Source: Lophium mytilinum (Eukaryota). From it: DNA of 64,000 nucleotides. Both the position numbers and the translations under genes were made by a program. The notes beneath the pieces were generated by a model. It searched no databases, was not told where the DNA came from, and was given only the letters and a program-made list of their open reading frames with translations. The stretch is from contig MU004184.1 in assembly GCA_010093605.1 (NCBI GenBank), forward strand, positions 444,801-508,800, given 5' to 3'. Positions 1,803 through 61,650 of this stretch are shown in pieces (positions within the stretch are counted from its first letter, which is position 1; every line of letters starts with the position of its first letter).

Positions 1803-3515
1803 TAACAGGCGTCAATTTTTGTAGCGCCGGACGGCAGCTGGCCCTTGTAGAGCATGATTGGCCCCCGGAGGTTCCTCAACGCCTCGGAGGGGCCTGTGCG
1901 TGGCGGAAAGCGCAGGCTTCTCGCATCGTGATGCTCTCTATGGTCTGATTCTGGAAGCGCCAGTTTTGGGGAGGTATGCCCTTGCAGTGGCGAGTTTAGG
2001 GAGACCCCAAACAAAAGTCACGATGCTGAAGCAGCGCGGAGCTCCTTTCTCCAGCATTTGGAGCTTCACGAGAGACTCTCTTCATGTCTGTACTTATCTT
2101 CCTGCTCGTGAATGCAGTGACAGCCAGAGGTTTTGCGCGGCGGAGAAGCGCTCCGGACACGATGCGCAGCTCCCAGACAGGGCTCAAAGCTCCAACTTGG
2201 GCATAGGTGATGCCTCTACAGCTATAGATAAATTGACGATCAATGCGGCGGCCTCTCGTGAGTGCTGCTTGTTCAATGACTTACTGACGGACGAGAAATG
2301 ATGCCGTTTTCTAGTACTGGCGTCCCCGGCTCCTCTCAGGGCAAGGTCACGGCATCAAGGCTTTCTCTGAGAGCGAGGAGGATCGGAATGAGATGAAAAA
2401 TAGATGACCTGCAATTTGTACGATCCTCGCAACAAAGCACATACTTCGTAACGCAGTGACAGACATAATTTCGGGCATTTTCCCAGCTCCGACAAGAGCG
2501 GCATATATCGAGGCGTGCACAGCAGCAACACTATGTGCCTAGGTGCCACCACCTACTGCAATATACACTCATCATGTCCTGCGACAGCTCTGCCGCTCCT
2601 GAATTGAGAAGCCTGTGATGCTGCGAGACAATGCCGCCCTCGCGCGAGGTGCCTGGACCGGGTTGACGCCGCCAACCTCAACACTACCGGCGATGAAGAT
2701 CTGTCCCCGACTACAGAGAGCTATCTAGCAGTCCTTACTGAGTGAAGGATGCCCCGCGGAATTCATGATGCAGTGACAGAGACTATGTGGCGAGTTCAAA
2801 TTCATGCGATGGCCTGCCTGTCTCCGGGTTTTGCGCGCAACCAAACCATTCCCGACCCTCACAATGCATCGCAGATATACCCGTAAAGCTTCAAGGACGG
2901 CTTTTACTCGCCAGCTGGCCGAGTGTGTCTGTCAAGCCCTTCGCTGGCTGCGGCGCCGCCCGCGCACGAGAATGGTGGTTGCGCAGGTCCAACTCGTCAC
3001 TGCCCTCAACACCATGGCTTCGCCGTCAGTCGCTGTGGCAGACGTAGCTCTGAGAGAGCTTCGAAGAGCTCACTCCTCTGCCTGTCGGCAGCATTGACGG
3101 CTTGTCTCGCCGTGGTGCCACCCGCGCGCGCTCCACCGCCCTCAACACCACGCAAAGTTCCAGGACGATCACCACTTGTATCCTGCAGATACATGACTGC
3201 CATGTGGCTTCGCCATGCGGCACATCCAGAGAGCACGAAAAGCTTAGCACGCGTTGCCGCTTGCTCATGAGAGTCAAAGACATGATGGTCACCATCGGCA
3301 TCACCATTGGAAACGGGCGTCGCTCAGCATGGAGGGAAAGCGATAGTCAGCATCACGTAGCGATTAGACGAATCGTGGGTGCAAAGCATTGATGCTGCGC
3401 ATCAACAACTCCGGGCAGCAACACCAAGGCGGGGCGGCGACGCGTCCCTTCATCAAGTGAAACACCAAAGCGAACATCACGATCCAGCAATAGAAGTGAA
3501 GTACCAAAGATAGAG

Positions 3516-3564
3516 AAGCTTCTTCTTTGAAGACCCAGACAAGCTGAGCAGATCAATGAAAAAG
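3516..3564 (-). terminator. Conserved hairpin downstream of U4 (candidate 3'-processing/termination signal)
   Basis: 45/49 identical to 17929-17977 (downstream of U2); folds on the minus strand with compensatory changes between copies. Confidence 0.65.
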
Positions 3565-3585
3565 GTTGAGGAAAGATCCTCGAGT

Positions 3586-3773
3586 TGGGGGTTCCAAAAA
3601 TTCCCTGCCGATCCGAAGACCAGCAGGAGCGGTCAGGTTGGGTAGTTTTCAACCAGCAAAAGACACGGGCTCGGACGACTCCTCACTGCCACGCGTAATG
3701 CCCTGTGATGATTGTTAGTGAGAAGCCAGGAGAGGAAAGGATGGGGGAGGGGAGACTTGCCTTGCACTAGGAT
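3586..3773 (-). ncRNA. U4: U4 spliceosomal snRNA containing one 58-nt GC-AG intron (exon 1 3773-3761, intron 3760-3703, exon 2 3702-~3586)
   Basis: Spliced read AUCCUAGUGCAAG|GGCAUUACGCGUGGCAGUGAGGAGUCGUCCGAGCCCGUGUCUUUUGCUGGUUGAAAACU... matches the fungal U4 layout: k-turn 5' stem-loop (CAGUGAGG...CCGAG), stem I UUUGCUGGUU, 3' hairpin with C(UUCG)G, Sm site AAUUUUUGG (3602-3594). Intron reads GCAAGT...CACTAAC...CACAG. Spliced length ~130 nt; ends approximate. Confidence 0.9.
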
Positions 3774-3806
3774 GAAGAACATAACTTGGTCCGGCGGCCG
3801 AGAAGG

Positions 3807-3865
3807 TTTTATAGCTGCCAGCCAGGCGCTAATCGAGTGATGACTCATCAGCGCTAGGCAGTTTA
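3807..3865 (-). promoter_or_regulatory. snRNA promoter: TATA box plus 29-bp upstream element with TGACTCA palindrome
   Basis: GTGATGACTCATCAGCGCTAGGCAGTTTA at 3837-3865 is identical to 18344-18372; minus-strand CTATAAAA near 3807-3814, ~35-40 nt upstream of the U4 5' end. Confidence 0.75.
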
Positions 3866-3884
3866 ACAGCAGGCAGTCTAATCG

Positions 3885-3993
3885 TGCCATGGTGCCTGGG
3901 GCCGTGCGGTCTTCAACGCACGGCCCCAGGCACCATGGCAGGGTACCTACACTACAGAGGGGTGGTGCCTGGGGCCGTGCGTTGGAGACCGCA
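3885..3993. repeat. Perfect 24-bp inverted repeat plus a third inverted copy
   Basis: 3885-3908 and 3917-3940 are exact reverse complements (8-nt loop); 3964-3993 is the reverse complement of 3905-3934 with one mismatch. Confidence 0.9.
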
Positions 3994-6900
3994 GACTTCC
4001 GCCACATTCCACGACATTCTACACCAAGCACGAGCTCCCCACCAGGTTTCCATAGGCCGGCTGCGCGGAGAGTGCCGGCATCGGTGGAAGTATCACGTGA
4101 GCATCCAGCCTTTGTACCAATGCATAGGCCCTCAACCAGTACGTAAAGTAGGTGCACACATTTCTATGTTTTGTACTCCTCGACTCCATGAGCTACTGCA
4201 GCGGCTGTCTCACCTCTCTATCCATGCTTTCTTACGAAGTGAAGTGTTCTGCCTTGAGAGATTAGTTATCTAGTAAGAAAAGATGAGATATTGCTTTCAA
4301 GTCTGCTTCTGCGACCATCCTGCGCGTATCAAAGAGTGAAAAGGTGTCCGATTAGTAAAAGAGCCTCTAGATACACAGTGAAATGATGTGGTGAACTCTC
4401 TCTGCAAAGGGCTGGCGCTCCAGCAAGCAAAAACCGGTCAAGCCTGGGCACGGAAGAGCAAGCAGGAACCATGAGAGTCTAGAGGAGGCGACAGAAGATA
4501 CAAAACGCCCTCATCTTCAAGTCCACCACATATTCTAAGAGCAGCAGCGAACAATCCATCCACGGAGTAGTCTCGCTGATCTCTTGGAGACGGACCAAGG
4601 CGCATTTTTTCAATCGTGTTCTAGCAATAGCGGCTGAGTAAGGGATGAGACTTTCTCGACTATGTCTATCGCTGACATGTGTTTCGGGAAAAGATTGTGG
4701 ACTGTGTAGCGTGCTGATGAGCTAGGCAAGGCTTCGAAATACGAAAGGCAATGTTTGAGGCGGTCGGGAAAGCAAGAGATTGAGCTGTATCGCGATGCTC
4801 GACTTTATGACCTAACTGTCTTATTTCTGACAGCACTGCGATGGTGAGCTGGACTCGTGAGGCAACTTAGAACGGTAGGATATCCAACGGGTTGAGAGAT
4901 AATTGAAGGAATCAAAGCCATGATTATAGGCGTGCACACTACTAGGGAGGCCTACCTAAAGTCCGGGGGCCGTATACTAGGTCGTCAGACGCAGTTCCCG
5001 CCCGGCGTAATCCCTGCGGTCCGCGCCGAGAACTTAGCATTCTAGATCATGTTCAGCTGTTGATATATATACCGCATATCGTAATCCGGGTGCCAGGTTA
5101 GGAGCCCCCCAGCATTTGGTGTTCACGGTTTCTCGTGCATCTCGAGAGGTTCGAGAAGATACATTCAGTATCCTGGCAAACAATCGGGCAATGGAAGTCG
5201 AGAACGCGGATGACACAATCGAAGAATGATGCTATCTGAGGTCCCCAACACTCACAGTAAATATGTTTAAGATGTCGACAGCTGAACTAAAATGGTCCAA
5301 ACCTAATTCATTGTAGCTCCTACCCTCTACAAAATGTAGATTGGGTATTCACGCCTAGCGCAATGGCAGATGCTCCTTGAAACCGCAAGCGCTCCCAACC
5401 TTGCACCATCGTCCTTTCCATGATCCGGTCTTCTTCCCATGAACTACTGATTCGGGCAGAGAAAGGTCGCAACACTTCAGAAGAATCGGCCCAAATTGTC
5501 TGTCATCTTCCTCCCATTGCATCTCCGACAGCGTAACCTAAGACACCGACTCCTCCTGAAGTCATCTCTCCGGGCTTTGGGCACAGGATTGTCGTCCCTA
5601 AGAGCTGCGATTCTTCTTCAGTCTTGTCTGTGTGTAGTTGAAGTAATCAGTCGTTGAGCGTCACATCCTATTTGACCCCAAATCCACCAGGCCGAGTCTC
5701 TCCCGCGCCGTAGTAGCCCAGATGTGGTAGCCTGACGAATATTTTCAAGTCTCGCCTTCGAGCTTGAGTGTCTCCAACAGTTCGGAGCTGAGAGGGTCGT
5801 GTACCAAATCTTCGTCGATCTCGTCAACCAGGAATACAATGTCTTCCAGGGTGGCTCACTTGCGGACATCGTCGAATGGGAAAGCGGGCAAGACAAACAG
5901 GTTGTGTCAGACCACCGAAGGATGTCTTGCAGCGTGGCACTGCTGCGGAGGTCGTCGAAAGAGAAGCGAGGAAGACACGCCGTTTGTGGCAGGCCATGTC
6001 AGCACTGCCAGACTCGCGCAGAAGAGGGAGAAGTCGGCCCATGATAGTATTTGCTTTGTCGTCTCCCTCCCATTTCATCTCCGGCGGGGTTGGCCAAGGT
6101 TTGAGTTCTTCCTCGAACTACCACTTAGGGCATCATATCGTCTTCTCAGAGAGAAACACACCACGGTTCGCGAGAAGAAGGGCGCAGAGTCGGCCCTCGA
6201 TTGTCTTTACCTTGTCATCTCTCTCTAGCTTCTTTCCCGGCAGCATGGACGAGGGCGCTACATCCTCCTCGCGCAAATGCTAGGTCGTCGTTCTCGACGA
6301 AGTCTTTCTTGAAATTTGAGGCAGCTCATCATCGAGCGACCAGGCGAGCAAGACACCAAGGTTGTGCCAGGTCACAGTGGAACTCTCCGGCTCGCGCGGG
6401 AGAGCTTTGGAGGCTACGGATTGAGCTCAGCCGCCTCATTTGCCCTCCACACGTCCCGTTAGGCATCATTTGCCCTCAACTGGCGCTCATGCTATGTCCC
6501 CTGGCGTTCGGGGCCTTCGTTATTGAAACCGATTGTCGCGTATACCGGAGCCGAGCGGAGGATTGAGATTGAAGGGGGCCGAGAGGAAGGATTCGGCCTA
6601 CAGAAGCGCTGTGATGATGTCAATCGTTAGCGGAGATAACGTGAATAATATTGAAAGGGTTTCGCTTACCGAAAGCTAAAACTAAGCATTACAATGGCCA
6701 GAAAGTGTTCTCGGTGCCGGAGTAGTCGGGACCATGCTTGCCATCCAACGGTGCTGTCCCCAGTGATCTTGACTACGAAAACGACAAATCTCGTGACGTC
6801 TGCCGCGAACCACGTTCATTCACGGAGAAAGATCGTCATCAACTTGAACGATCAACTTGAATACGCGGCGTCACTTTCTCAATGAAGACGCAAAGATCGA

Positions 6901-7214
6901 GAATGTTGGCAGCACCAATTTGCGCACGGTATAGGGAGAGCGAGTAATAGAAGCTATGAGAGCGACAATTCGTGAGGATTAGACAAGCCCTACTAACTGT
7001 CTCGTCCGTCTCCCCGATCATCCTCCCTGAATTTTTGCTGTCGCTCGCAGTCTGTCGTTTCCGTGGGCCTCCTCGGTCTTTCCTTTCCGCATTGATGAAA
7101 GCCTCAACGAAGCAGTTCACGTCTCCATCGGAATGCAGGAGACACTGCATAGGCCTTCTCCGTGTCAATCAATCGGAATCAAACTTGGTCTTGAAAAATG
7201 TAAAAGAGCTACAT

Positions 7215-8000
7215 TAATTAGCGCAATGTGATCAGAAGAGATGCATTTGTGGCTCACCTTCGGCGGGCAGCTCTTCAGCTTCCTCATAGGTGAGGAGTTG
7301 CGCAGCATCCTTGCAAGTGAGGACTTGCGCAGCTTCCTTGTAGGTGAAGATTTCCGAACCTTCTGGATCAGTGGCTCGAGGCCCCGTGAGGTAGCGTAAG
7401 ATATCTCTGCCAATCTGGTAGTCGGACCGGCTCTCATGCTCGGCTAGAGACGACCTTCAAAGCATTCCAGGAATCGAATGATGTGGATTGGTGAGGTCAG
7501 GTTGAAGAAGGCATAGCCGACGTCGCAGTCTGATTTGCAGTCCATGCGCAAATACATGAAGTCAATCAGTCCTCGACAGCCGGTATCCCATAGCAAACGG
7601 AGAAGTTGTTCCTGAGGAGTGTTAGTTGATGCTACACAAGCAAGGAAGAAGGTGCTTACATCAGTCATCTTGTTTGGGATATTGCGTAACATGATGGTAG
7701 TTGGCACCCGATTTGGAATCCATCCGAAGATACATGAAGTCAAGCAGTCCTCATCCCACAGCAACCGAAGAAGTTGTTCCTGAGATTGTTAGTCGATGCT
7801 ACACAAGCAAAGAAGAAGGCGCTTACATCAGTCACTTTGTTTGGAATATCCCGCAGCATGATGGTCTTTCGCACATCGGACCCATCCAGGATGTGAGCAT
7901 AGGAGACGGTGTTATCATGAGCATTCCAGGTGCGTCCGTTTCGGTAGAACGCAATGAATCGGACGAACGAATCCTTTGCATACGACTTAGTTGTCCGGCC
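7215..8000 (-). pseudogene. Mei2-like RRM (RRM_2) pseudogene with internal duplication and premature stop
   Basis: Motifs DVRKTIMLRDIPNK / TTIMLRNIPNK, IDFMYLRMD..DVGYAFFN and AEISYA...LIQKVRKSS; introns 7826-7780 and 7659-7612; in-frame TAG at 7446-7444; no clean start found. Boundaries approximate. Confidence 0.75.
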
Positions 8001-8504
8001 GGGTCGTGCGCGTAGTCATGGTTGGGGCTTGTTGGGTGGTGAAGTGGTGCGAGCAGCCCAACGAATTTAAGGTTGTAGGTGAGGAAGCGAGCTAGGCCTG
8101 CACGTGACCGCTGTCACTGAGCAGTCCCGCCCGTGACCCGCACGCTATTGCCTTTAATGTCTACTGAGTATGGCTCTAGTAGTCGCTGCATCTTCCTCCA
8201 TATGTTTCGATACACTGGATGATTTTAAGAAGATTAAAAGAATCAAATTCACGAAGTCACACTCCTTCAAGATTCACGCAGGTAGGCATCGAAGCCTACT
8301 TCAAGACTTTTAGAGCGAACATATGAAATATTCACCAGGACAGATGCTTCTAAGAACTAATCTTTACCACTCTCTCCTTCAAATTGTCTGGCCCCTTTAC
8401 CCTACGTGGCACGAACGCTTCTCATTTCAACTATATCTTCATTTTTCCTTTCTCAGCTATTATTGTCCGCACCATCCCGACAGCATCTCTAACATCCCGG
8501 CGAA

Positions 8505-9031
8505 ATGGCGTCCTGCCACGATCCATCGAGCTCCCATACCAGCCCCGATCGCCGCGCCCGCGCCATGTTGGCACCACGCCGGCAAACCCTGGGAGAGCTC
8601 GCTAAATCAATGAGCGTAGCCAAGACCATCCCTCTTCCACCCTTCGACGACGTAAGCCCCCAAAGCCCCTACTCTTGTCTAGCAATTGTTAATAGCACCA
8701 ATAGGCGGGCATCGTTGTCGCCCCACCGGTTCCCATCATCTCTACGGTTACCGTCAATGCGGCCTCTCCCACCGACCTCATCGCGCCCGTTGTTGCGCCG
8801 GCCGTGCGAACTCCGGCCATCACTCGGGAGGAGATCAACCTCGTAGCTGGTACGTTATGTTCCTCTCTTCTCTCTTTTGGGACGATAGCTGACTTGTGTG
8901 CTTTGTATGTAGCCCCTACCCTTGCCACGGTCTCGGCGCCGTCGCCTCGCCGTCGTGAGAGAGCTGGCTCATTGCGCCGCCTGCGTGACTGGTTGGCGCG
9001 GGTTTTCCGTGGGAAGAGTAGAGAGGAGTAA
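8505..9031 (+). CDS. Small hypothetical protein, 3 exons (introns ~8652-8704 and 8850-8912)
   Basis: GTAAGC...TAG and GTACGT...GCTGAC...TAG introns join an open frame of ~135 aa; no recognisable domain. Confidence 0.4.
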
Positions 9032-9256
9032 CACCGGGGGTGCTCTGCTGCGTGTTGTGTCTGTAGGCGTAATGTGAAAGAGACCGTGGGCGGCCTTGGG
9101 GTTTTAGGTAGTAATGAGAATGAATCCTGTCTTATCGAGCATTTGATCTGCTTCTGACTGTGAAGTCTGACTGCTTGTGGCTGGTGCGCTGGATTGGAAG
9201 GTAGATCTATACGCTTTGACAATGCTGGAGTTTCTTTGGGTGGACAGAAGTGTTTG

Positions 9257-9339
9257 GAGGAAGATACAATGCCTAACCAGGTTGAGGAAGATCCAATGCC
9301 TAACCAGGTTGAGGAAGATCCAATGCCTAACCAGGTTGA
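9257..9339. repeat. 27-bp tandem repeat x3
   Basis: GAGGAAGAT(A/C)CAATGCCTAACCAGGTT three times. Confidence 0.9.
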
Positions 9340-11019
9340 AAAACTATGGTTTGATTATTGGATTTCTTTCTCGATATATGCATTGGATCCTCCCATGTTG
9401 AAGCGATGAGTTTAGGCCCGTACTGGCAAGGCGCTAGCAGTATCTGAAACTCATTAATGTGCCAATTGTGATGAACCGAAACGTGTTTGTCCAATGCTGA
9501 TAGCTCTTACGGATGCCTCGTGACATACTGAATATGATTCAGCGACATATCCGGATGGTTGACGTATACTAGGGCTTCGAAGTCAGAGCTTAGAATGAAA
9601 TCTTTAAGACTCCTACAACTTCCCGCAATTGAAAGGGCGGGAATCTGCTTAATCAACATGAGTGCGAGGTTCTCGATTCCCGGGTAGATGTTCTTGGATT
9701 CTCGCTTCCATGTTTGAACCCACATAGGTTTGTACAGGACGGCCCTCAAGCCCAGTACATGAAGCGTGCCCAGAGAAAAGGGCAATTGCATGACTAAACA
9801 GTGGATGGAGAGTTGTTCCGGGAGCTGAATTGCCGAAAGTTCGATGTGTGTTGCCACCATAACGGGGACTACTTGGACCGTCGCAGCCTTGCTCGACTCT
9901 GCAGCCACGATGAACCACATCCAGCGGAAGCTGGGGGAGCATTTTGAGGAGCAGTCAAGTTCCCTGACCGTTCATAGCGGAATGGCCCCGCACTTCCATT
10001 GACAACAATACTCTTTCAGGTCATTGTCGATTGCTTGTCCGATTTCGATAGCGCTCTCTTTCATGCCTTTGGTCTGCCATTCTTCATCCCCCTCCTCCTT
10101 CAACATCAGCTTAGTCGTGTCCTCTTTATCGGTCGCGGCTCGGTAAAGACTTTGACGGTGTGATCTTATACTTAACCTTTGTCAGGTTCCAGAGAAACAT
10201 TGGGATTGTGAAGAGTCCGCTAGAGAACTGGGAACACCCACGACGACGGATCCCATTGCACTCAACCTCTTCATCTTCCCCATCCTCGTACGGATGTTTT
10301 CCGTTCCAAATCGTTCTCGCCACGTCAGAACGGTCGAAGCGGGGGGTGACAGAGACCGCAGAGAAAAGCATGCGGCGAAGAGGCAACCCAAAGTATCTTC
10401 CGAGAGGCTTCTATGTTTGAGCAGCATCAGCTGATCGAGGATGGAATCGGTTCGGTTGGGAGGAGAAGGAGAAGGGGGCGTGTTTTTCTGCGGTTTCTGG
10501 AGGAGGAACTTTCCAAGCGATCGGAAAGTAGACTTGCGAATTTTTGCTATGCATGCCTGTATTGTAGAGACGCGTCAGAGATGGAAAGGAGATGAGGAGG
10601 GGACATGAAACGGTGCTGATGACCTCTTGTTTATCCTGGAGCTCATGTTATCGAGATTTCGCACTCGGCTGGACTAGGAGGGAATCTTGCCGATGAGGAC
10701 GTTCTGCTGTCTCGGTCAAGACGCGTCGCCCCAATGCCGTACTCTGAAAACGCGTCGGCTCGGCCGGCTGGTGGATGCCCACTTGAGGCCAACCTGGATT
10801 GCTTCATCATGAGGCTGATGTTGTTTGTTCATTGTGTCCCACCCGGGCAGCAACACTGCAAGTCATGTCCCAAGGACTTGTCGCAGCTGCGCTGGGCCAG
10901 CACTTCCAGCATAGCGGCGTAGTATAATTGTAGGATAGCAGCGTCATATGGTCGCAGAATAGCAGCGCCTTCGTCGTATCCTAACAGCATGCCACTACAG
11001 CTGCATCTCAGAGAGATTT

Positions 11020-11066
11020 CTTCTTCTTCGACGACCCAGACAAGCTGAGTGGATCGATGAAAAAGG
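11020..11066 (-). terminator. Third copy of the snRNA downstream hairpin
   Basis: 42/47 identical to the U4 copy; substitutions largely keep pairing. Confidence 0.6.
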
Positions 11067-11067
11067 T

Positions 11068-11151
11068 GTGTGTCACCCGAGGTAGTGCAATATGGGCAAC
11101 GCAGTGTGGTTTTAACGATTGGGTGCCCGCTCACTAGGCATCACAGGTTAT
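11068..11151 (-). ncRNA. Candidate ~85-nt U2-related small RNA, or truncated U2 relic, retaining stem-loop IV
   Basis: CUGCGUUGCCCAUAUUGCACUACCUCGGGUGACAC aligns to SL IV of the U2 at 18 kb and still folds. It is followed by the third copy of the snRNA downstream hairpin (11020-11066), with TGACGTCA ~75 nt upstream. Confidence 0.4.
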
Positions 11152-12149
11152 GAAGGGGGAGAAATGGTTCGAGGCGTGGGCTGCTTGAGTATTTCAAGAG
11201 TTCTTCAGCGAGCCATGGCATTGGATGACGTCACCACAGCAACGCCAGGGCAGGTTCGTGTTCACTCAAAGGTGAACCAAGATGCGGCGCCAGGATGGAG
11301 GAGTTCCGGCCGAGTTATCGGTCATGGAAGCTCCTCAATGGGAGGTCATGTCCAGGCATTGATATACGGAAACATGAGCCTTTGAGCGGCAATTCAAGTA
11401 TTTAGATTACGAACAACTCTGTAGCATAGCTTCTTACTCTGGAACATCATCCTAGCGCATCGAAGTAGGTAACAATAGCTCTATCTGTAGAGACTTAGCT
11501 AAATGTCATCTCTCAGTTGGCGAAACGTGCGAAGCATAGCGGAGCCTAGATGAAAGAAAGGTTCGCAACCTCAATTTGAAGCACGAACCCTCAGCTTTCT
11601 TGAACGGATGCCCCAAGATGCAAATATATCACTTGCCAAGTCCTGGGACACAGTGAGGCGTTGGGAGAGTGATCAATCCACTATTGGCTTTGCACTAAGA
11701 ACTTGGAAAGAATGGCTCTTTTTCCCTGGAGACCTTATGATGAAAACTCCCAGTCCGGATCCCAACTCCTAGCTTGTTTGGATAAAACTTGAACAAGACG
11801 AGAAATATTCGAAATATATAGGAAACAACGCTCCCTTCCGTTTACTTCGAACCCCTAAATCTCTCTGTCTCCTACCTCTTCGAACATATATCCCTGAAAT
11901 GTACACACAGCGTAGCCATGTTGCCGCCTAGCATGACGCGGAGTGAGGATTGGATGGGAAAGATATTTTTCCCGCCATAATTGTTGCCCGGTGGGGATCC
12001 CGAAGCTTCGTTGGCGGGGCGTGCAGACAGTGCCTTGGATGCTGGGATTGAGGTCAGCCAGGGCCTGAGATGCTTTAGCGAAGGGGGTGCAGAGCTGTAT
12101 ACCGTCGTCTGGGTGACCCTTATGCGTTCATGGTTTGTTCCAATGTTGT

Positions 12150-13340
12150 TCGTGCGTGCTTTCCGAGGAGGTGTAGAGGCGCTTCAGGCGGTGTCCTGAA
12201 GTTGTCCACAAGTCGCTTGTGGGAACGGAATAATGGGTACTGGATTAGTACTTTGAGAAGAGGCTTAGGTGCTGTCGATATGGGGTATCGTCTGGAGCCT
12301 CCCGACGAGCTTTCAGACCAAGAAAAGTGAATGATAGAATCTTTTGCGAACATACCAGGGCACTCCAAACGGTGCCTTATAAGTTACAAGACTGAACGGA
12401 GCCCCTCTTTAGATCTACATGCCACCCAACATGTTGCCGATCACGAAAATCGTTACGCCATGTTTGGGGTAGCGGTGGTCGTAAAACGTCGTCTCGAATG
12501 CTTCGTATACATCATTGTTGCTTCAAAGCCGTTGATTATATTTCATTGTGAATGTGCCAATGACCTTCAAACGGTGGCATAAAAGTCCGCATAAGGTTCT
12601 ATTAGACTCTTCATACTAGGTGATAAGTTAGCAAGAGCGAGATAATCTAGAGCGGGATTGCTATAGTGTTAGTGAGCACCGTCTGAGTTGGCTCCGCGAG
12701 TTCACCTTTTCTCCAAAACGGACCATGCAGACATGTTGCCAATATTCCGAGGTGTCTCAGACGGTGCTATAAAAGTGTACACAAGCATCTTGTAGACCGT
12801 GAGATGTCCTCACTTCGGGAACTAGGATTGAATAGAGAGGTTGTCGGTGTAGAGCTGTAGAGCATTGTCTTCTGAAGCCTGTCACATTTAAGAATCTGTC
12901 AAAGCAAATGCTACGCGCTATTTGAGGACCAATAGGATCTCCTCAAACGGTGGCATTAAGTGTGCAGAAACGTCCCCTAGAACGTCAGTATTCGGTACTC
13001 GCGAGAGCGATCTGGTTTGGGAGCTGTTAGTGTAGAGCCATATACCATCGTCTGAAGCAGCCTGACGTATCTTCGGGTCTGGTCAAAGCGATTGCTACAC
13101 TATCTTTGAGAGCATATAGTGGCACCTCAGACGGTATCATAGAGGTGTGCGTGGGTCCTTCCTAGGCCCGAATATCTAATGCTCACGAGAGCCAGTCGTC
13201 TTACGACGCGTTAGTGTAGAGCAGTAGACCACTGTCTGAAGTAGCTCAACGCGCTTCCAGGTCGGTCAAAGCCACTGTTACATTTCTTCAAGAATTCATA
13301 GCGGCGCTTCAGACGGCGGCATAGATGTGTGCACAAGCTT
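12150..13340. repeat. Degenerate tandem array, ~185-bp period, ~7 units
   Basis: Core C(C/T)TCA(G/A)ACGG recurs at ~12182, 12363, 12565, 12756, 12941, 13126, 13307 with similar flanks. Confidence 0.7.
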
Positions 13341-13535
13341 GTGAGGAGAGACAGATCTTGATTCTTATAAAATTACAAAAGAAAACAGGCCGTATATCCA
13401 AGCCCGAAGCCAATTATGAGAGGAGGGAGGTGGGAATTGCGCCGTGCGCGTTGATGGTGCCGCTACATAGTTTAGATTAGCAAGAGCTGTCAGTTCCATT
13501 GGATTGTGCCTCATACATGATGCCGAAGTCAGCGC

Positions 13536-13703
13536 TTAGTCCTCGAAGTCCTCCTCGTCCTCCGACAGTGGTGGTATCATGGTGTAGGGGTGGCGAGCCC
13601 CCTCCGGCGCCGTGAGCGCCCGGTACAGCTGCTTCAGGATTGGAATCCCGGTGACGACGACGAAGATGATGAGGAGGATCATTGATGGGGTGTCGAGGGC
13701 CAT
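13536..13703 (-). CDS. Small single-TM protein (55 aa) with acidic tail
   Basis: MALDTPSMILLIIFVVVTGIPILKQLYR...EDEEDFED; GC3-rich codons; 9-bp AACCTACAA-type repeats immediately upstream. Confidence 0.5.
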   Translation of the reverse strand: MALDTPSMILLIIFVVVTGIPILKQLYRALTAPEGARHPYTMIPPLSEDEEDFED

Positions 13704-14548
13704 GACGCGTAGTGTGGTGTTGATTCGCGCGTTGTAGGTTTTGTAGGTTTTGTGGGCTTTGCAGGCTTTGTTTGATTTGTAGGTGTTGTAGGTTTTGTAG
13801 GCTTTGCTGGATGTCTTCGGTGGGGTGAGAGGGAAAGGTTTGTGGTTGCAGCGCACGGTCTGTTGAGGTGACGGAAGGTGAACACGTGATGGAGACACGA
13901 TAAGTTCCCCGGCGATGACAGGTATGCATGAAAGACCTCTTGAAAACTTGTGCGTGTTATTCTACCGCGGTCTGAAGCCCCTCGATATACTTTTGCGATT
14001 CTACAATAGCGGAAAGACGCCACTCTGCACACACAGGAAGCTTGCCAGGCCACCTCAGACACCATAATTTAGGTCTACCGAAATCAAAGATTGCCGTATC
14101 TACGTCAAAACCTTCATCTGAGTCTGCCCCTATTACCCAAGCTCATCTCTCCTTCAGCGTCATACATATCTTCGACTTCAACGCCAATCCCTTCTCTTCC
14201 GCCCGTAGGCTGCAACGAGGAAGACGTTCTACTCTCCTCAGATGTACAAGATTAGACTATCCCCAAAGCAAACTTTCCAACTTTTCAGAATCTTTTCGCT
14301 CAATCAAACTCTCTTTTGAGCAATTTTCTACTCTCTCAATTTGATAAGCTCTGACTATCCACAGAGCACCATCAAATGCCGCAAAACGATGACTATATGT
14401 TCACAATATCAACGCGTTCACATTCGAGAACATTCTTCGAAGCAGCAGAAACACCGTTCCCAATTTCAACTCCCCAGTTCAAGCTCCAGAGGGTCAACTA
14501 TCTTCATACCGTCTGAGCGTCCACAAGCTACTAACCAAACCCCCAAAT

Positions 14549-14885
14549 CTACTCCTCCTCCTCTCCCATCTCCACCCCCTCCAACCACTTCTCCACCTTC
14601 TCAATCACCGCCTGCTTCCAGGCCGGCAGCTCCAGCAGCGGCGCCGCCGCCAGCAGCGGCGCCACCGCATGCAACACGTCCAGCCTCTCATACCACGTCA
14701 GCTCCATTGCCTCTCTGCGGAGCGTGTCGGGGGTCGAGGGGGTCTTCCAGGCGGCCTCGTGGGCGGCAAGGGGGAGAGGTTCTACAGGAGGTTATCAGCG
14801 CCATTCTTTTACATGAAGGTTCGAGGGCGATTTTACGTTTAGTTTGCTTGCGTGCGAACAGATGGCGCAAGATTGGGAGCTTCAT
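14549..14885 (-). CDS. Small hypothetical protein (~93 aa), intron ~14836-14782
   Basis: Splicing GTAAAA...GCTGAT...TAG gives MKLPILRHLFARKQTKQPLPL...WKQAVIEKVEKWLEGVEMGEEEE; strong coding-like GC3 bias. Confidence 0.45.
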
Positions 14886-17800
14886 GATCGCGTTTTGGGA
14901 GGCGGGTGGTGGCGTTCAGGTGGCTTTGACGTTGGTTTGATGATGGAAGTTTGAAGCTGATGTAGCGCTAGTTTTGTTTCTTGAGGATGTTTAAGGACGG
15001 ACGCTGACCTGAAATTGGACGCGAAAGGTGTTTATGTAGTGGAAAGTGTTACGCTACGAGAGGTGAAGGTGGTAGGCGAGACGGGCGCAAAAGTGAAGCC
15101 AATGGCAGTTCTTCTTCTATTTTGCGGCAAGGGTGGGACGCGGTGAAGGTACGAAGGGCCTAGAAAGGACGAACAAAATGTTTTCAATTGTCTGCTATTG
15201 TCGAAAAACCTCGCAATACTATAGAGATCTAAATGACAGGAAACTTCGGCGTTTTGTACGCATTAGTCTGCCACTGCTGGGAGGACCATAAGTTGTTTTG
15301 AAGATAGAGAAAGTACGGTACTTAAGTATTTGTACCTAGCAGTAATTTTGCTTTATGGCCTCCTCTCTCTAGAAACTACATCTACAAGAACATGCCCGCT
15401 AACAAGCTCAAGTCTCCTGCTACTCTCGCTGAAGTGCGAGCGTCTTCGGACCTCGTGTAACTAGGCTTGAGACTCAGTAAATAAGCTCTCGGAGCCTAAG
15501 GTTGGAGCTGCTAGGTGACTGTCGTTGGTCGGCTTGCTATGGTGGTCGGTCACTTCGCGTGGACAGGCTCGAGGCGACCCGTAGGAGGTAGAAGGCTGTT
15601 ACGGCGGCTAGCTCATCCATCGTCTTGGGCTCACCACGGTCACCCAACGGAAATCTTGTCTCATTCATGAGACTTGTTATCCAGCTCGTGGTTTGAGAAT
15701 GCTCCTTCTGTCATCACTGGGTTGTTCGTGGGCCTAGCGGCTTATTTAGATTAGTGTTCGTGAAATAAATTTGCGGGACTTTGTGGACTTTGAGGATACT
15801 TGACAGAGCACATAGCAGGGGGTTTCTACCCGGCATAGCGTTTAGCAAGCTAGATGTTCTGAGATAACCGCTTGCTGTAGATACTTCGTTGTCTTCTGAC
15901 TGCCGTAGGTCTCAATTATTTCCTTCTGCTCCAAGAAAATGGGTAGCGTGTGCCTCTGAACAAATTAGCTAGGCGATGAGCAATTTCGGTGCCGTCGTTA
16001 ACTGGATAAGTTCGTCATACTCTTTCGTTTATAGGCAGCATAGGAGTTGACCGTGTCTCTTTTTAAATGCGATTTGACGTTCTCGGAAATGTACCACTTG
16101 AGCTACATCCGTATATACCCCGGATGTCTTTTTCCGTTGATTTCATCCAACATGGAATGCCGTCTTACTTTAGGCTCAAACGAGATCAACTCCCGTGGCC
16201 CCAGCAACGACATTCCAGACTTGCTAGGACGCGTGAGTGCGACCAATATGAAAGGACAGCTGCGGATGCTACGGCATTATTCCCTCTCCGACACCAATCT
16301 CAAGTACCGCAAGACTCCCATTTAATCTTGGGTAGCTTGCAGACCGCGCGATCTTTGTAAGAGCTTGGAGAAAGGAATATGAAGCCTTGACAGGAAGAAT
16401 GGTCTCCGCGGAATCTCTAACCATCATGCCATTTCGAAACATCTAATTCCTGTCTTCAAGCTGTTCGTGCACCTGGCGCCCTCAATTGCCAGACCCATGA
16501 GCGAGCACTCAACCCGCGAGGGCTGGGCGTGGTCCTTCTCCTGGTGTGGCTCCAAAGACTCCATTCCCTGCCCATTGATCAGTGGGTCTTCCACTTCTTC
16601 TGGGATATGCCTAAAGTCTACCTCCCACGTCTTCGGGCAACAGAAGTTCTCTCTTGTGTCCGCCGCATCGATCTTGGAACACCTTCTTGAGCCGGTATTA
16701 TGATGCGATGAGACGGGGTCGACGCTAGTGGCTACGAGACCAACGAGAGGTATCCAGGCAGGCCCGACTTGGGGTTTGACTCCGACGAGAGATAGCTTGT
16801 GTGAAGGAGCCGGATATGAAGGCACGGTTGGAGTTCTGGCGGGAAAGGCGTCTCTTGAAGATGGAGCGGTGGGGCATGCCGATTGCAGTATGGCGTCGTG
16901 CTTCGACACCGCAACAGAGTCCGCAAATATGAGTCCAAACGTTCCCGTTCTATAGATATGACCCGGGCAAGCGATATGCGGTGGTGGTCTACGAAACCTC
17001 GACGGTGAGGCCTAAGGACGTGGCAATAAAGTCCTGGGGCCGTCAGCTCACAAATTCCTCCTTTCGCTTCTCCCACAGTCGCCCTGGTCCACTAGATATT
17101 ATCGAGAAGCTCGATGGGGGTATCGAAAGTGTACAGGTATAATGGTACAGCTTCGGGACGTGGCGAAGGATTCGAAAGAGGTGTAAAATGACTTCGAGGC
17201 TAGGACGACGCGCTTCCTGAATTCGGCGAAAAGTCTCGATATGCGAAGCTGGGCAGCGAAAATTCATCGTGATCTTTCTGCGACACTCTGGATGCGCGCG
17301 AAGATGGAGAGGTGACGGTGCTTGTTGGCTTCTAGAGGGTCGATTGGATGGGAGGATTAGGCCAATGAGACCGACGCCAGTAACGACTTGAAGACTTTGG
17401 TATTCTGATTGAGAACAAACACAAAGAATGGAAGGCTCTTACCTAGCCGCTGGGATGGATGCGCTGAAGCTGCTGATGCCAAAGAAGCTCTGGTAGCGAC
17501 GGACACCACATTCCTCAACACGGTGCCCCACGTGTCCATGACGGAGAGACAGAGATCTATCAAGGTTGTCTGCGAGAAGACAATGTCTGTTTGCTCGTTG
17601 GGGTATTCGTCATTCTCGTAGGTGTTGTGAGACCTTTCAGGCGACAAGCAGCGAGGATGGCATGTGAGATGCTTCAACTCCAAGCAGTCTCTGGAAGACC
17701 GCTTCAGCCTCCTTCTCCCACTCCTACGCGAGACAGGACACTTGTTGAAAAACAATGCAAGCAAGAAGATGGATGAAGGGAATAGAGATGACGCGACATG

Positions 17801-17928
17801 CCCAGCCTGTGCAGTGCGGACGCGTTCAGGGTTCTCGCTCAGGACGTGACGCGTCACAGCAACATCACAACACCACAACATTCACATCACGAAAGCAAGA
17901 GGCACGTCGTAGGATCGCCAAGAGAGAA

Positions 17929-17977
17929 AAGCTTCTTCTTCGAAGACCCGGACAAGCCGAGCAGTTCAATGAAAAAG
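17929..17977 (-). terminator. Conserved hairpin downstream of U2
   Basis: Homologous to 3516-3564, with a compensatory A-U to G-C pair. Confidence 0.65.
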
Positions 17978-17991
17978 AGGTGAACAAAATG

Positions 17992-18286
17992 TTCGCGTCG
18001 GCCCGAGGCAGTGCAATACGAGCGACACAGTGCCCCTGAACATAGGCAAGCCCAGCGGCTCAGGGGACAGTTTCCAAAGATTGAGAAATCGAGGGGAGGC
18101 CCCGTAGGACCATTTCCAGCGATTAAACTGAAAAACACCTGTAAGATTGTTAGTGATGGAAGCAAACAGGATAGGAACAGGGAACTTACCAATACTACAC
18201 TTGATCTAAGCCAAAAGGCACTGTGAAGATTGTTAGTCATGATGTGGAAAGGATGGGGGTGGAGTTGGAACTTACAAGAGAGCTGA
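17992..18286 (-). ncRNA. U2: U2 spliceosomal snRNA containing two GT-AG introns (18275-18221, 55 nt; 18189-18139, 51 nt)
   Basis: Spliced read AGCUCUCUU|UGCCUUUUGGCUUAGAUCAAGUGUAGUAUUG|GUGUUUUUCAGUUUAAUCGCUGGAAA... shows SL I, branch-recognition GUAGUA, SL IIa, IIb with UACG loop, IIc complement CGAUU, Sm-like AAUCUUUGG, SL III and SL IV loop GUAUUGCACU. ~190 nt spliced; ends approximate. Confidence 0.92.
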
Positions 18287-18310
18287 GGTCCACGAACTGT
18301 CGGCGGCGGA

Positions 18311-18372
18311 GTATTTATTGCTGGCGAACGACGCTAGCTTGGCGTGATGACTCATCAGCGCTAGGCAGTTTA
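18311..18372 (-). promoter_or_regulatory. snRNA promoter: TATA-like box plus 29-bp upstream element
   Basis: 18344-18372 identical to 3837-3865; minus-strand AATAAATA ~30 nt upstream of the U2 5' end. Confidence 0.75.
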
Positions 18373-19428
18373 CTCCGGGCCGTATAATGGCGACGGGGGG
18401 CCTACTGTGCTGCTGGCCAGTGACGGTGGATTGTTAGCCTCGTTACTGTGGCTCCGCTGTGGCTGGGATCCAACGGCGAGGGAGATCTGGTGCTCCGTAG
18501 CACTACGGGGAGCGCCTATGGTCAGTAATCCCGTGCAGCAGAGACTTCGCAAAGGCTTTGCACTGCCCCAATTGACTTTGTGGAAGATTGATTTGAACTG
18601 GAGGCCATTGGCACAGCGCCAACTGGGGGCTGGTCCCAATTCACCTCCGGCAGTGATCATCTACGGAAGTAGAGGCCTTACTATGGCTAGATGGCGAGCC
18701 GCAGGACACTCTGCCCACCTTTCAGACATTCTATGTGAAGTATGGTGTTGTTGTGAAGCTCATAGGATCTTTTGTGTCTTCCTGCACTGTCGCGTGCCCG
18801 AGGCCCCTTACCCACCAATCGCAATCGCAACTCACAGCCGTTTAAACTACAGAAAAAGACCATATCTCTAGTCGCAATGATGTGGTCATCAGCAGTATAC
18901 AGAACACAATAAACTCATATCTCGTAACCCTTTCGCTTGACAGAGCTCTGCCTTCAGTCTAATCGTTGCCTTCCCCTCATCTGGCGACGCATTCACACTC
19001 TGCTACTTTCTCTCTACCAAAGCCGGCTCTACCTCATCGTTTTTCGAGTCATCCATATATCAACCTATTCTCAACCACAGATCCCTCCTCGCCTTCTTGA
19101 TCCCCAAACGCGCGGCGCGGAACCCACTAGCCTATCTCGAAGCCACGGGTGCTAGAAACAGACGAGTATCAAAACAGAGGACAAAGACGCATTATTTACG
19201 TCCCCAGCAGCCAAAATGAGATCGACATCTGTCTTTGTGCTGTCTAGCCCTCCCAATCCCCGCGGAAACCAAGCAGAATATGGCGGAGCAAGATCATACC
19301 AAGCAATCGCAAGCACAACAAAAAGATAAGGAAATACAGCCGCTTCAGATTCCATCCCATCTCGACGCGGACGCCCATCTCCAGACCCCCAACCACCAAC
19401 CTCCAACACACCAGCTTCCATCTCACCT

Positions 19429-20589: not shown

Positions 20590-22290
20590 ATGCAATGGGA
20601 ATCAGGCTGCTTTTTGACCCGCTACACACCCGCTGGCCGAGCTACTCTTCACATCGGTATCAAGCGATTAAGATCTGAAACTAGAGAATCCTATATCCGA
20701 GGGTGGGTTACCTTGAATTTCGTCCTGGTTGATCCCCGACACACAAGTTTAGGCACTTTTTACAACCGCTTAGGGTCCCTTAACTTGCTTTTGAATTTTA
20801 GAAATAATGTCAAGGCTAACGTAGTAAATGTTAGGCTGCGATTCACCCAGCTGCACACCTACTAGCTAAACCACCCTTCACGCCGGTATCAATTAATCAA
20901 GATTAGAAGCCGGTGCATCTTTTTCCGAGTCCTAAAACTGGCGTCCTCGTACACTCTTGAGACACACCTTTGGACACTCCTTACAATTGCTCGAGGTGCC
21001 TTAGTTGGCTTGTAAACTTCTAGATACGATCTAAAAGCTGACGTAGTAATATCAGACTGCTCTTCAACCAGCCGCACACCTACTAGCTAAACCACCCTTC
21101 AAGCTGGAAGTCTACGGAGATGTGTTCCATACTCTTGGGCTCCCCATGGAAGGTTTCGAATAGTTAAGCGCGATGTCAAGTTCTCGACGACGTAGACCAG
21201 ACTACTCTTTTCCTAAATACCTTCCAACTAGCTAGGCCACTCCTCTCGGTGTTATCCAGCAAGCAAGATTAAAACCGAAGGCGAATAGTAATAAAATAGG
21301 CTCGTGTGTCTAGTCTACGCACCTCCCTATTACACTCCTTAGGGTGCCCCCACAAGATTTAGAGCATCCCGGCGCGAAGTATAGTTCTAGATAGTAAAAA
21401 TTAGAGTACTCTTTTCCTCACTACCTCCCAACTAGCTAAGCAACACCTCGTGGTAGTGTTAATCGGGCAAGAATAAAAGTAAATATAAGTAAGTCTATAT
21501 ACTTAGATATATGCACCCCCCTTTTATACTCTCTAAGGTGCCCCCACATCATTCAAGACATCTAGGCGTAGTATTAAGTCCCAGGCCGCGAAAATTAGAC
21601 TCCTCTTTTTCTAAATACATTCTACCTAGCTAAGCTCCACTTTATAGTAGCGTTAGGGAGGCAAAAATGAAACTAAATAGTAGCAATTCCGTAAGTCTAG
21701 TCGCTATACCTCCCTTTTCTCATTCCCCGGGGGTCCCCACAAACTTCACATAACTAGGCACGATGTCAAGACCCACGGCATACATGTTAGACTACCCTTT
21801 TCCGCACTACCGCCTCTTTTATTAAGCTCCTCCAGCCATTGGCGTCAAGACAGTAAGATAGACGTTAAATAGTAGTAATTCCGTATATCTAATTCTATGC
21901 ACCCCCAATTCCAACTCTCCAGCGTACTTCTATACAGTTTAAAATATCCAGGCACCATGTTAAGTGCTAGACAGCTTAAACCAGACTACCCTTTTCCTTT
22001 CTACCTATAAAGTAGCTAAGTTACTCCTACTAGCGGTATTAAGTGCGCAAATTAAACGCCGAACAGTAGTAATCCGGTATGTTTATTCCACGCAACCCTA
22101 TTCCCTACTCCCCGGGGCCCCCCTACAAGGTCTGCCGCATCTAGGCACGACGTTAAACCCCACGGCTTACATATTAGACTACTCTTTAACCACCTGCCTA
22201 TTGACTGTCTGGGCCACTCCCTACTGCGGCATCAAGTGCGCAAGATCGAAACCAAACAGTGCCAAACTTGGACGTCTAGACACATAGCCT
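20590..22290. repeat. Degenerate tandem array, ~194-bp period (longer ~220-bp units at the left end)
   Basis: (T/C)(T/C)AGACTAC(T/C)CTTTT at ~21199, 21401, 21595, 21787, 21981, 22174; CACACCTACTAGCTAAACCACCCTTCA exact at ~20855 and ~21076; TpA-rich. Confidence 0.75.
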
Positions 22291-22653
22291 AGTACTGTCA
22301 TTTATTCCCACAAGCGCTCTACAGCACGCGCTGGTTGCTTATGTTACTATTGTCTACAAACTTGAATAAGAGGTTTGTGTACTAATGGTACCATTTTGGA
22401 CACAAGTAGGGGGTTTATGTACTAATGGCACCATTTTAAATGTAAGGGGCCAATGCGGGGTGGTTACATTAAGCAATACATGACAATGTAAAGGGCAAGT
22501 GTGAACATTTTCAGCAAAAGCAGAGAGGTCACGTCAGGAAATGCAAGAAGTAAGAGAGAATTGTGGATTAAAAGGCCGTTTCGTGCCGAAAAGGTGGAAG
22601 AAAACCCCTCCCCCTGACCACCCCCCAAGTCACCCACCCGCCCTCGCCTCCGC

Positions 22654-60083: not shown

Positions 60084-60399
60084 GCTGCAGGTTTGAAGTA
60101 GACGTTCTAGAAATGACATCCTGTTTTCAATTTCCTCGCCCAGTCAAACCACCTCTTACGCCTGCATTACTACAGCAGCGGCATTGCAATATAACAGCAG
60201 TATGCACACTACCCTCCCTCTATCTCCCAATCTATAGGCTCCAGGAATAACATACCTATTTCACGTATGACAGTTTTTGACATGCTATTATCGATTTCCC
60301 CGCCCAGCCAAGCCACTTCTTACGCCAGCATCGATATGGCAAGCGATATTACAGCAGAGCATAGTATGCACCCTACCCTCTTCCTACGCCCTAATATCC

Positions 60400-61650
60400 A
60401 GGCCCTAGAAATGACATACCCAACCTCCGCCCTGCGGTTTTTGACATCCTATCCTCCATTTCCCCACCCAGCTGAGCCACTTCAAACGCCGGTATCACGC
60501 TGGCAATCGGGAATGCGCTTGACTTCAATAGGCACACTATGCTCCCCTAATATCCTAATCTGTACGCTCCAGAAATGACATTCCCAGCCTCCGCCCTACG
60601 ATTTTCAACATTCTATCCTCTAATTTCTCACCACCCTGGGCCGCTTCAGACGCCGGCAGCACGCTAGCAAGAGAGAGTATGCCCTACTCCAATATACATA
60701 CCACCCTCACCCCACGTCTCAATTCCTAGGCCCTAGAAATGACATACCCAACCCCCGCCCTACGGCTTTTAACATCCTATCCTCTATTTTTTCACTCAGC
60801 CAGGGACACCTCTAACGCCGGCAGCACACTAGCAGGAGAGAAAGCAAGTAGTCCAATATACACGCTACACGTATCACGTGCTCTAATATAGGTGTTATAG
60901 AAATTACATCCCTAATCTAGCTATTACGGGTTTTGATATCCCATCCTCCATTTTCTTACCCAGCCGGGCCACCTCTAATACCGGCAGCACTCTAGCAAGA
61001 GAGAGATAAGTCTATACTAATATACACGCTACGCGTACTACGTACTCTAACTTACGTGCTTTAGAAACAACATACCCAATCCAAACACTACAGCTTTCAA
61101 CATCGCGTTTTGGACATCTAGGCCGTGTCGGGCCACCTCTAACAGCGGCAGCACGTTAGTAAAAGAGAGATGGGTATGCTCTAGTATGCATAGCACTGTA
61201 TCTTATGCTCTAAAACACGTGCTCCGGGAATTACATCCCTAATCTAGCTATTACGGCTTTTAACATTCTATTTTAGATTTTCAGACCGTGTTAGGCCACC
61301 TCTAACGGCGGCGGTACACGAGCAAGAGAGAGCTAGATATACTCTAATATACACGCTATACGTATTACATGCTCTAATATACGCGTTGTAGAAATGGCAT
61401 ACCTATTCTAAACACCGCGGTTCGTGACATCGTGTTTTTTGAATATGGAGTATATCAGGCCACCTCTAACAGCAGTATTACTACGCCAACAACACTACAA
61501 TACAGCAACAGTATACACCTATACACGTCTAGTACTCTAATATAGGCAGCGCGGAAATGACATACCCAATCTCCCTATCACAGTTTTTGACATCCCATTC
61601 TCAACTTCCTCGCCCCACCAAGCCCCCTCAAACGCCAGCATCACACCAGC
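60400..61650. repeat. Degenerate tandem array, 164-bp period, ~8 units
   Basis: AGAAATGACATACC-like motif at ~60405, 60569, 60733, 60897, 61061, 61225, 61388, 61551, each followed by CCACCTCTAACGCCGGCAGCAC-like sequence. Confidence 0.85.

Follow-up and report, generated by a model that had tools for sequence, protein, structure and literature searches.

Introns of the U4 and U2 spliceosomal RNA genes of Lophium mytilinum share near-identical sequence blocks within a common gene layout

The stretch analysed here, referred to as the window, is 64 kb of the fungus Lophium mytilinum (GenBank assembly GCA_010093605.1, contig MU004184.1, positions 444,801 to 508,800). Its minus strand contains two spliceosomal small nuclear RNA (snRNA) genes identified with Rfam, encoding U4 and U2 (Table 1). 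The U4 match (RF00015, 3578-3712) scores 80.4 bits with an E-value of 2.9e-16, and the U2 match (RF00004, 17986-18232) scores 66 bits with an E-value of 8.6e-11; both exceed the gathering threshold of 46 and cover the full model. The spliced lengths, 138 nt for U4 and ~193-198 nt for U2, are ordinary. The Sm site of U4 holds an internal run of five T residues, and these two Sm-class genes are presumably transcribed by RNA polymerase II (Pol II). U2 and U4 each appear to be single genes in a genome with introns of the filamentous-ascomycete style, a grouping made from intron style alone. A protein-cluster search with an ABC-transporter ORF returned a mixture of eukaryotic clusters that gave no taxonomic assignment. 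Neither a U6 gene nor any tRNA gene was found in the window.

Three predicted introns interrupt the genes, one in U4 and two in U2, as the initial annotation had claimed. Its intron sequences and coordinates all proved correct when the loci were read again, and the Rfam matches, the splice signals and the consensus restored on intron removal bear out its mRNA-type introns of 51-58 nt. The individual lengths (58 nt for the U4 intron, 55 nt for U2 intron 1, 51 nt for U2 intron 2) are of the short size usual for this window. Each intron has a consensus 5' splice site (GTAAGT or GCAAGT) and a perfect ACTAAC branch site 11-12 nt upstream of CAG; the GCAAGT of U4 is the strong form typical of GC-AG introns. 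U2 intron 2 is the clearest of the three predicted introns. Rfam opens a 63-nt insertion at the 12-nt loop of the model, 63 being 51 plus 12, and with the intron taken out UUUUC and GGAAA pair as stem IIa around a 12-nt loop, as in the consensus. The 5' end of the U4 gene lies further upstream than its Rfam match, the gene reading ATCCTAGTGCAAG (3773-3761), then the intron, then GGCATTACGCG. Joined to exon 2, exon 1 matches the 5' end of the Rfam consensus at 16/22 positions without a gap, against 13/22 with a 3-nt gap in Rfam's own alignment into the intron tail (both counted by eye). Removal of U2 intron 1 lets exon 1 supply the 5' strand of stem I, again by eye; the restoration of the snRNA consensus was judged in this way throughout. 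If U6 has a fission-yeast-like sequence, as we assume, only the spliced form of U4 would presumably be able to pair with it in stem II. We infer the splicing of all three introns, and the transcription starts, from these sequence signals. Both genes would then need spliceosomal splicing to yield a mature RNA.

The U4 intron and U2 intron 1 resemble each other in two blocks, and here the initial annotation, which had reported an exact 14-mer and near-identical 3' ends, was right on both counts. The 14-mer, CCCCCATCCTTTCC, occurs exactly twice when both strands of the window are searched, both times on the minus strand. Allowing one mismatch still gives two matches, and two or more matches appeared in 0/100 shuffles; at up to three mismatches there are 25 matches in the window, the remaining 23 all with three. 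The second block runs from the branch site to the 3' splice site and is identical at 16/18 positions. No alignment of the intron interiors is possible outside these near-perfect blocks (14/14 and 16/18), and the 14-mer itself is shifted by 3 and 6 nt between the introns: it lies 13 nt (U4) and 16 nt (U2) from the 5' splice site, and 14 and 8 nt before ACTAAC. It lies 118 and 113 nt from the 5' end of a shared upstream element, 66 and 59 nt from the TATA-like box (both described below), and ~+26 to +44 from the predicted starts across both genes. RNA structure was considered as a reason for the 14-mer and rejected, the introns and the pre-snRNA 5' regions folding no better than shuffles; minimum free energies are -1.7, 0 and -2.0 kcal/mol for the U4 intron, U2 intron 1 and U2 intron 2 (z -0.26, 0.71 and -0.26). 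Since the introns are unstructured, the motif would be accessible. Among shorter likenesses, GTAAGTTCC and ACTAACAATCTT are indeed common to U2 introns 1 and 2, as had been pointed out; GTAAGTTCC carries little weight because an ordinary intron pair is also identical at 9/9 positions at the 5' end. ACTAACAATC occurs four times in the window, in the three snRNA introns and in one intron of an RRM_2 gene (7780-7826), so the initial caveat that it is also found in ordinary introns was well placed.

The likeness between the U4 intron and U2 intron 1 exceeds what chance, or the ordinary introns of the window, would lead one to expect. Composition-aware null models were chosen because both interiors are C/T-rich. 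A shared word of at least 14 arose in 18/200,000 mononucleotide shuffles of the two interiors and in 200/200,000 draws from a first-order Markov model trained on the same two interiors, a training that biases this null toward chance. By these tests the 14-mer alone is significant at 9e-5 to 1e-3. A first background consisted of 19 ordinary introns (40-129 nt) picked by eye from lists of 41 and 23 candidates, with apparent coding false positives, overlapping alternatives and two promoter artefacts dropped. One of 228 pairs (not both snRNA) in this hand-picked set, a tandem-duplicated RRM_2 intron pair, reaches a word of 14, the next longest being 12, and identity over the last 18 bases is at most 12 across the 228 pairs with ordinary introns. 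Because the hand-picked set is subjective, the comparison was repeated on all 90 non-overlapping intron-like segments defined by regular expression in the window (4005 pairs). Four pairs share a word of at least 14: the snRNA promoters (29), tandem-duplicated introns (16), the U4 intron with U2 intron 1 (14) and an unrelated pair (14). Over the last 18 bases the U4 intron is identical to U2 intron 1 at 16 positions, and the best of the 4004 other pairs reaches 13. Only this pair combines a 14-mer word with a tail identity of at least 14/18. Measured against ordinary introns of the window, the k-mers first put forward as evidence divide: the 14-mer with the 16/18 tail recurs in no other of the 4005 pairs, whereas GTAAGTTCC and ACTAACAATC do not discriminate.

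The likeness between the two genes extends to their promoters. An upstream element (USE) of 29 nt is identical at both loci; its 25-nt core is exact in both and finds two matches in the window at up to three mismatches, against a shuffle mean of 0. A TATA-like box follows at 52 nt (U4) and 54 nt (U2) from the start of the USE, and then a GCCGCCG(G)AC block, with spacers between these blocks that are only weakly alike. Through the promoters, first introns and 3' flanks of both genes, perfect blocks alternate with unalignable sequence. The USE palindrome TGATGAGTCATCA contains ATGAGTCAT, which we take to be the optimal Gcn4/AP-1-type bZIP site; as an activator site of snRNA genes it would be unusual.

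Contigs of one other run with the same species label were compared with positions 3400-18500, and only two of them matched, over 20-40 nt and with no joints. In the other run, a 3963-nt contig at the very high depth of 1091 carries two oppositely oriented copies of the USE separated by ~20 nt, and a TATA-like box follows each copy. The copies match positions 3838-3857 and 18345-18376 of the window, and the rest of the 15-kb stretch is not in that run. This contig looks like a divergent pair of snRNA-type promoters, and the presence of the USE with a TATA-like box suggests that the element is conserved beyond this assembly. A metagenome scan with a 19-nt USE core gave five loci, 0/5 with an Rfam match at E ≤ 0.01 and all with flanks unlike snRNA promoters; a scan of prokaryote contigs with a pattern of U2 exon 2 plus the 5' site of intron 2 gave two bacterial loci, neither with a U2 match. 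The sequence just upstream of the U4 USE (3890-3983, minus reading) includes a 22-nt inverted repeat with perfect arms, CAACGCACGGCCCCAGGCACCA / TGGTGCCTGGGGCCGTGCGTTG, and one of the arms occurs again in direct orientation. An Rfam search of the window at E ≤ 1 found, beyond U2 and U4, a single weak match on this inverted repeat, to mir-652 (31 bits against a gathering threshold of 73).

A 58-nt block 3' of both mature ends is 90% identical between the genes, with a weaker likeness over ~130 nt. It contains a hairpin that also exists in a third copy between the two genes. The 18 pairs of the hairpin are formed in 98.1% of cells across the three copies, against 42-61% when the partners are slid by 1-3 columns. 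Three pairs have changed on both sides; 79/500 shuffles reach the observed covariation, so that covariation alone supports the fold weakly. Run on the window with filters off, the covariance model of the hairpin, R1, finds the three copies only, the next match scoring 14.7 bits (E 0.26). Because pairing has been kept through two-sided changes, at least this block would be functional and not a relic of duplication. RNase III (Rnt1/Pac1) hairpins lie 3' of yeast snRNAs, and a conserved hairpin immediately 3' of the mature snRNA end is what is found here; by analogy, it is probably an RNase III-type processing signal or a termination signal. The AGNN tetraloop is typical of Rnt1 substrates, whereas the loop here is CUUGU, and as far as we are aware the sequences are unrelated to the yeast snRNA signals. 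We know of no description of the 29-nt USE or the 18-bp hairpin as signals of filamentous-fungal snRNA genes, although no search for one was made.

The third copy of the hairpin, whose fold is kept by compensating changes, adjoins a remnant resembling U2 stem-loop IV, and its locus has no Rfam match at E ≤ 10. A degenerate Sm-like word lies upstream, unaccompanied by a USE, and a cAMP response element (CRE)-type bZIP site, TGACGTCA, is found ~160 nt upstream at 11226-11233. The locus may be a U2 pseudogene that has been truncated; alternatively, it may be a gene for a small RNA in which the terminator is re-used.

Table 1. Positions of the U4 and U2 genes, their predicted introns and the sequence elements they share (window coordinates)
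Feature	Position	Strand	Basis
U4 exon 1, ATCCTAGTGCAAG, 13 nt	3761..3773	-	5' end placed from the Rfam U4 consensus
U4 intron, 58 nt, GC-AG: GCAAGT 5' site, ACTAAC branch site, CAG 3' site, ends CACAG (predicted)	3703..3760	-	sequence reading
U4 exon 2: 5' stem-loop, U6-pairing region, Sm site AATTTTTGG, 3' stem	3578..3702	-	Rfam RF00015
U2 exon 1, ~9-14 nt	18276..18289	-	5' end placed between 18284 and 18289 by comparison with the Rfam U2 consensus
U2 intron 1, 55 nt, GT-AG, GTAAGT...GACTAACAATCTTCACAG (predicted)	18221..18275	-	sequence reading
U2 exon 2: stem-loop I and GUAGUA (branch-site recognition sequence)	18190..18220	-	Rfam alignment
U2 intron 2, 51 nt, GT-AG, GTAAGT...CACTAACAATCTTACAG, begins 3 nt after GUAGUA (predicted)	18139..18189	-	Rfam insertion and reading
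U2 exon 3: stem IIa/IIb, Sm site, stem-loops III and IV	17986..18138	-	Rfam RF00004
14-mer CCCCCATCCTTTCC in U4 intron, ~+27 to +40 from the predicted start	3734..3747	-	exact match
14-mer CCCCCATCCTTTCC in U2 intron 1	18246..18259	-	exact match
U4 branch site-to-3' splice site block CACTAACAATCATCACAG	3703..3720	-	16/18 identical to U2 intron 1
U2 intron 1 counterpart block GACTAACAATCTTCACAG	18221..18238	-	16/18 identical to U4 intron
U4 USE, 29 nt, identical to U2 copy, core palindrome TGATGAGTCATCA	3837..3865	-	exact match and alignment
U2 USE, 29 nt, identical to U4 copy	18344..18372	-	exact match and alignment
U4 TATA-like box TATAAAA (3807-3813) and common GCCGCCGGAC block	3788..3813	-	aligned with AATAAATA and GCCGCCGAC of U2
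U2 TATA-like box and GCCGCCGAC block	18297..18318	-	alignment with U4
U4 3'-flank hairpin, 18 bp	3519..3564	-	three-copy consensus fold; model R1, 80.7 bits
U2 3'-flank hairpin	17932..17977	-	repeat family D14, consensus fold; model R1, 82.7 bits
Third hairpin copy 11020-11065 (block 11008-11065) and U2 stem-loop IV-like remnant 11066-11106	11020..11106	-	repeat family D14, local alignment; model R1, 80.6 bits

We propose, at a probability of roughly 0.45, that the blocks shared by the U4 intron and U2 intron 1 are selected elements of a common snRNA gene layout, in which they would be one among several control elements. Two RNAs that are not homologous are encoded in one arrangement: the USE, the TATA-like box and the GCCGCCG block come first; the transcribed part would open with a first exon of ~9-14 nt and, near the cap, an intron that is short, unstructured and rich in pyrimidines; the 3' hairpin follows. 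To this layout the 14-mer and the branch-to-3'-site block would add a further two conserved blocks, maintained by selection. The branch block, as an optimised signal, would make splicing efficient, and the 14-mer would be a cis-element housed in the intron because a mature snRNA cannot carry such a sequence. This element might work at the DNA level, as a downstream promoter element located at ~+26 to +44, or in RNA, as a protein-binding site for a factor that couples splicing to snRNA biogenesis. A mosaic of near-perfect blocks set in unalignable sequence is what leads us to read the blocks as selected elements and not as a recent copy, since a recent copy would be alike throughout and an old neutral copy would not keep a perfect 14-mer. 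Gene conversion is disfavoured on similar grounds, as it would need and leave longer homology and would homogenise neighbouring sequence. The initial annotation had offered two possibilities, the spread of one intron lineage between snRNAs or co-selection. The mosaic pattern and the differing offsets fit co-selection better than simple transposition, and spread by reverse splicing would be the less likely of the two. A wider claim is doubtful: the Pol II snRNA genes of this lineage may share a cap-proximal intron module whose 14-nt core ties snRNA transcription or biogenesis to the spliceosome. Such a module would be the Pol II equivalent of the B block that lies in the S. pombe U6 intron; it would extend to U4, and U1, U5 and any further copies of U2 and U4 would be expected to carry it.

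Several observations weigh against selection for shared elements. It is argued here from paralogous loci only, one gene pair in one genome, and both splicing and the transcription starts are read from sequence signals. U2 intron 2 has no exact copy of the 14-mer, only the loose likeness CCTATCCTGTTTGC. The 14-mer is C/T-rich, as is the segment from 5' site to branch site in some other introns of the window, and the unrelated intron-like pair noted above also has a 14-mer in common, GTGCAGCTGGGTGA. Among the promoter and RNA-binding consensus sequences that could be tested, the 14-mer fits none. A common origin of both introns followed by selection is compatible with our proposal, and the contrast with transposition is only partial.

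Transposition in its full form holds that one intron lineage has spread. An excised snRNA intron, or the same mRNA intron on two occasions, would have entered U2 and U4 RNA by reverse splicing and, after being copied to DNA, reached the two genes by recombination, leaving the blocks as leftover homology with no function of their own. The likeness it has to explain is real by the shuffle, Markov and pair tests, and ACTAACAATC, present in all three introns, occurs only four times in the window. U2 intron 2 begins 3 nt past the branch-site recognition sequence, near the catalytic centre, and a 2018 review (PMC5855946) gives reverse splicing, in the relevant passages, as the conventional explanation for snRNA introns. 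We nonetheless think it rather unlikely that spread is the whole explanation. The interior outside the two blocks is unalignable and the offsets differ, no donor copy of the 14-mer is found elsewhere in the 64 kb, and both first introns lie ~9-14 nt from the 5' end, a placement that random insertion does not predict. Moreover, U4 leaves the spliceosome before catalysis and its intron falls in the U4/U6 stem II region, the same problem that those passages raise for U1. Spread by descent is not exclusive of later selection. Chance combined with convergence appears improbable. Highly expressed snRNA genes could acquire optimal splice signals and C/T-rich tracts, making the 14-mer a coincidence, and the intron ends are indeed near consensus, GTAAGT and ACTAAC...CAG being the usual forms; an ordinary intron has GACTAACAATCT, an ordinary pair agrees at 9/9 positions at the 5' end, and one unrelated pair in 4005 likewise has a common 14-mer. 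Against this, such a word appeared in just 18/200,000 and 200/200,000 trials under the two null models, its combination with the 16/18 tail is unique in 4005 pairs, and it falls in exactly the two genes that have a common promoter and 3' hairpin.

The introns might instead control the supply of small nuclear ribonucleoproteins (snRNPs), an idea put forward in the initial annotation. Maturation of U2 and U4 would depend on how active the spliceosome is, and the GC 5' site of U4, a weak one, would be the regulated step. Both RNAs would have to mature through splicing, the U4 5' site is GC and not GT, and splicing is raised as a possible regulator of U6 levels in the review passages cited above (PMC5855946). 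As an explanation of the shared blocks we give this little credence: the circuit would be a positive feedback and not a homeostatic one, and the idea leaves the sharing of a specific 14-mer unexplained. A more radical alternative is that the first introns are not introns at all, transcription starting just 3' of the C/T-rich tract so that the blocks are proximal promoter or initiator sequence and only U2 intron 2 is real. Rfam does align its full models from inside the intron tails, at AUCAUCAC..AGGGC in U4 and CAAUCUUCACAGUGCC in U2, and filamentous-fungal promoters are known to have C/T-rich tracts upstream of their start sites. Yet in both segments the 5' site hexamer is perfect, with ACTAAC and CAG spaced as in an intron, the exons upstream fit the consensus 5' ends better (for U4, by eye, the ungapped 16/22 against the gapped 13/22), and presumably only the spliced U4 5' end forms stem II with the U6 sequence assumed above. 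We consider this alternative very improbable. Selection for shared elements of a common layout remains our preferred reading.

Features elsewhere in the window include a ~167-nt tandem duplication at 7612-7874 (minus strand) in the RRM_2 gene, which is Mei2-like and was identified through its downstream exon (Pfam PF04059, E 1.9e-12). The duplication copies an exon end together with an intron; the duplicated introns share a 16-mer, and one of them has GACTAACAATCT, as does U2 intron 1. Degenerate tandem and dispersed repeat families lie at 20600-22300, 43200-45700 and 60100-61700, with periods of ~107, 164 and 190-390 nt and identities of 60-85% (D1, D2, D6-D11, D13).

The known introns of Schizosaccharomyces pombe U6 and of Rhodotorula hasegawae U6, U2, U1 and U5 have, like those described here, a canonical 5' site, branch site and 3' site within conserved snRNA sequence. 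The R. hasegawae U2 intron reportedly lies in the region just downstream of the branch-site recognition sequence, as U2 intron 2 does. Compared with known fungal snRNA introns, the present ones differ in having U4 as a host, in occurring twice within U2, and in that the first introns lie near the cap rather than catalytic sequences. The promoters of S. pombe, as we understand them, are alike in placing an upstream element and a TATA box at a fixed spacing common to different snRNA genes.

In its passages on snRNA introns, the 2018 review (PMC5855946) lists spliceosomal introns in U6, U2, U5 and U1, not U4, and describes U6 introns as 'otherwise not conserved in sequence'. Here, in contrast, a 14-mer and 16/18 positions at the 3' end are common to introns that lie in different snRNAs, U4 and U2. 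Elsewhere the review cites Frendewey 1990 for the B block of S. pombe U6, a promoter element inside the U6 intron. By analogy, the 14-mer may follow the same idea of an intron with a cis-element that the mature RNA cannot hold. S. pombe U6 differs in that Pol III transcribes it and the consensus bound by TFIIIC is known, whereas the genes here are of the Sm class, the 14-mer fits no known consensus and its function is proposed. Fungal U3 snoRNA introns are a further parallel. In the parts of Canzler et al. 2017 (PMC5832005) that concern intron position and homology, 133/138 of these introns fall within the 5' half of the first stem-loop, they occur commonly in Pezizomycotina, one is GC-AG, and the first and second introns of one gene are without homology. 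U3 resembles the present case as an independently transcribed, snRNA-like small-RNA gene with cap-proximal introns and a GC-AG exception. The host RNA differs, and those parts of the study report no likeness between introns of different RNA species.

Introner-like elements of Dothideomycetes also place near-identical intron sequence in unrelated fungal host genes, and they were considered as a class for the introns described here. As characterised in the relevant parts of PMC3609843, they are longer than regular introns and stably structured. The snRNA introns, at 51-58 nt against 40-129 nt for ordinary introns, are neither, and this class was rejected. The 14-mer has two copies within the 64 kb, both in snRNA genes, a count that bears on the copy number expected of introner-like elements in the window only. 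Literature searches on introns of snRNA genes turned up neither a U4 intron nor sequence-related introns in different snRNAs; the primary papers of Takahashi 1993/1996 and Canzler 2016 lay outside that search, and absence from print is not established. What would be new here is the U4 intron, the two U2 introns, the U3-like cap-proximal placement and the sequence likeness between introns of different RNAs; snRNA introns as such were already known.

The classic case for reverse splicing, and for the closeness of a given RNA to the catalytic centre, is made from introns in snRNA genes. If the U4 intron is real, it weakens proximity as the sole explanation, as the U1 case does, given that U4 leaves before catalysis. 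Related introns in two snRNA genes would, if confirmed, be either direct evidence of an intron moving between RNAs or an instance of an intron kept for a regulatory element. The 29-nt USE and the 18-bp hairpin may in addition give a handle on the promoter and 3'-end signals of filamentous-fungal snRNA genes.

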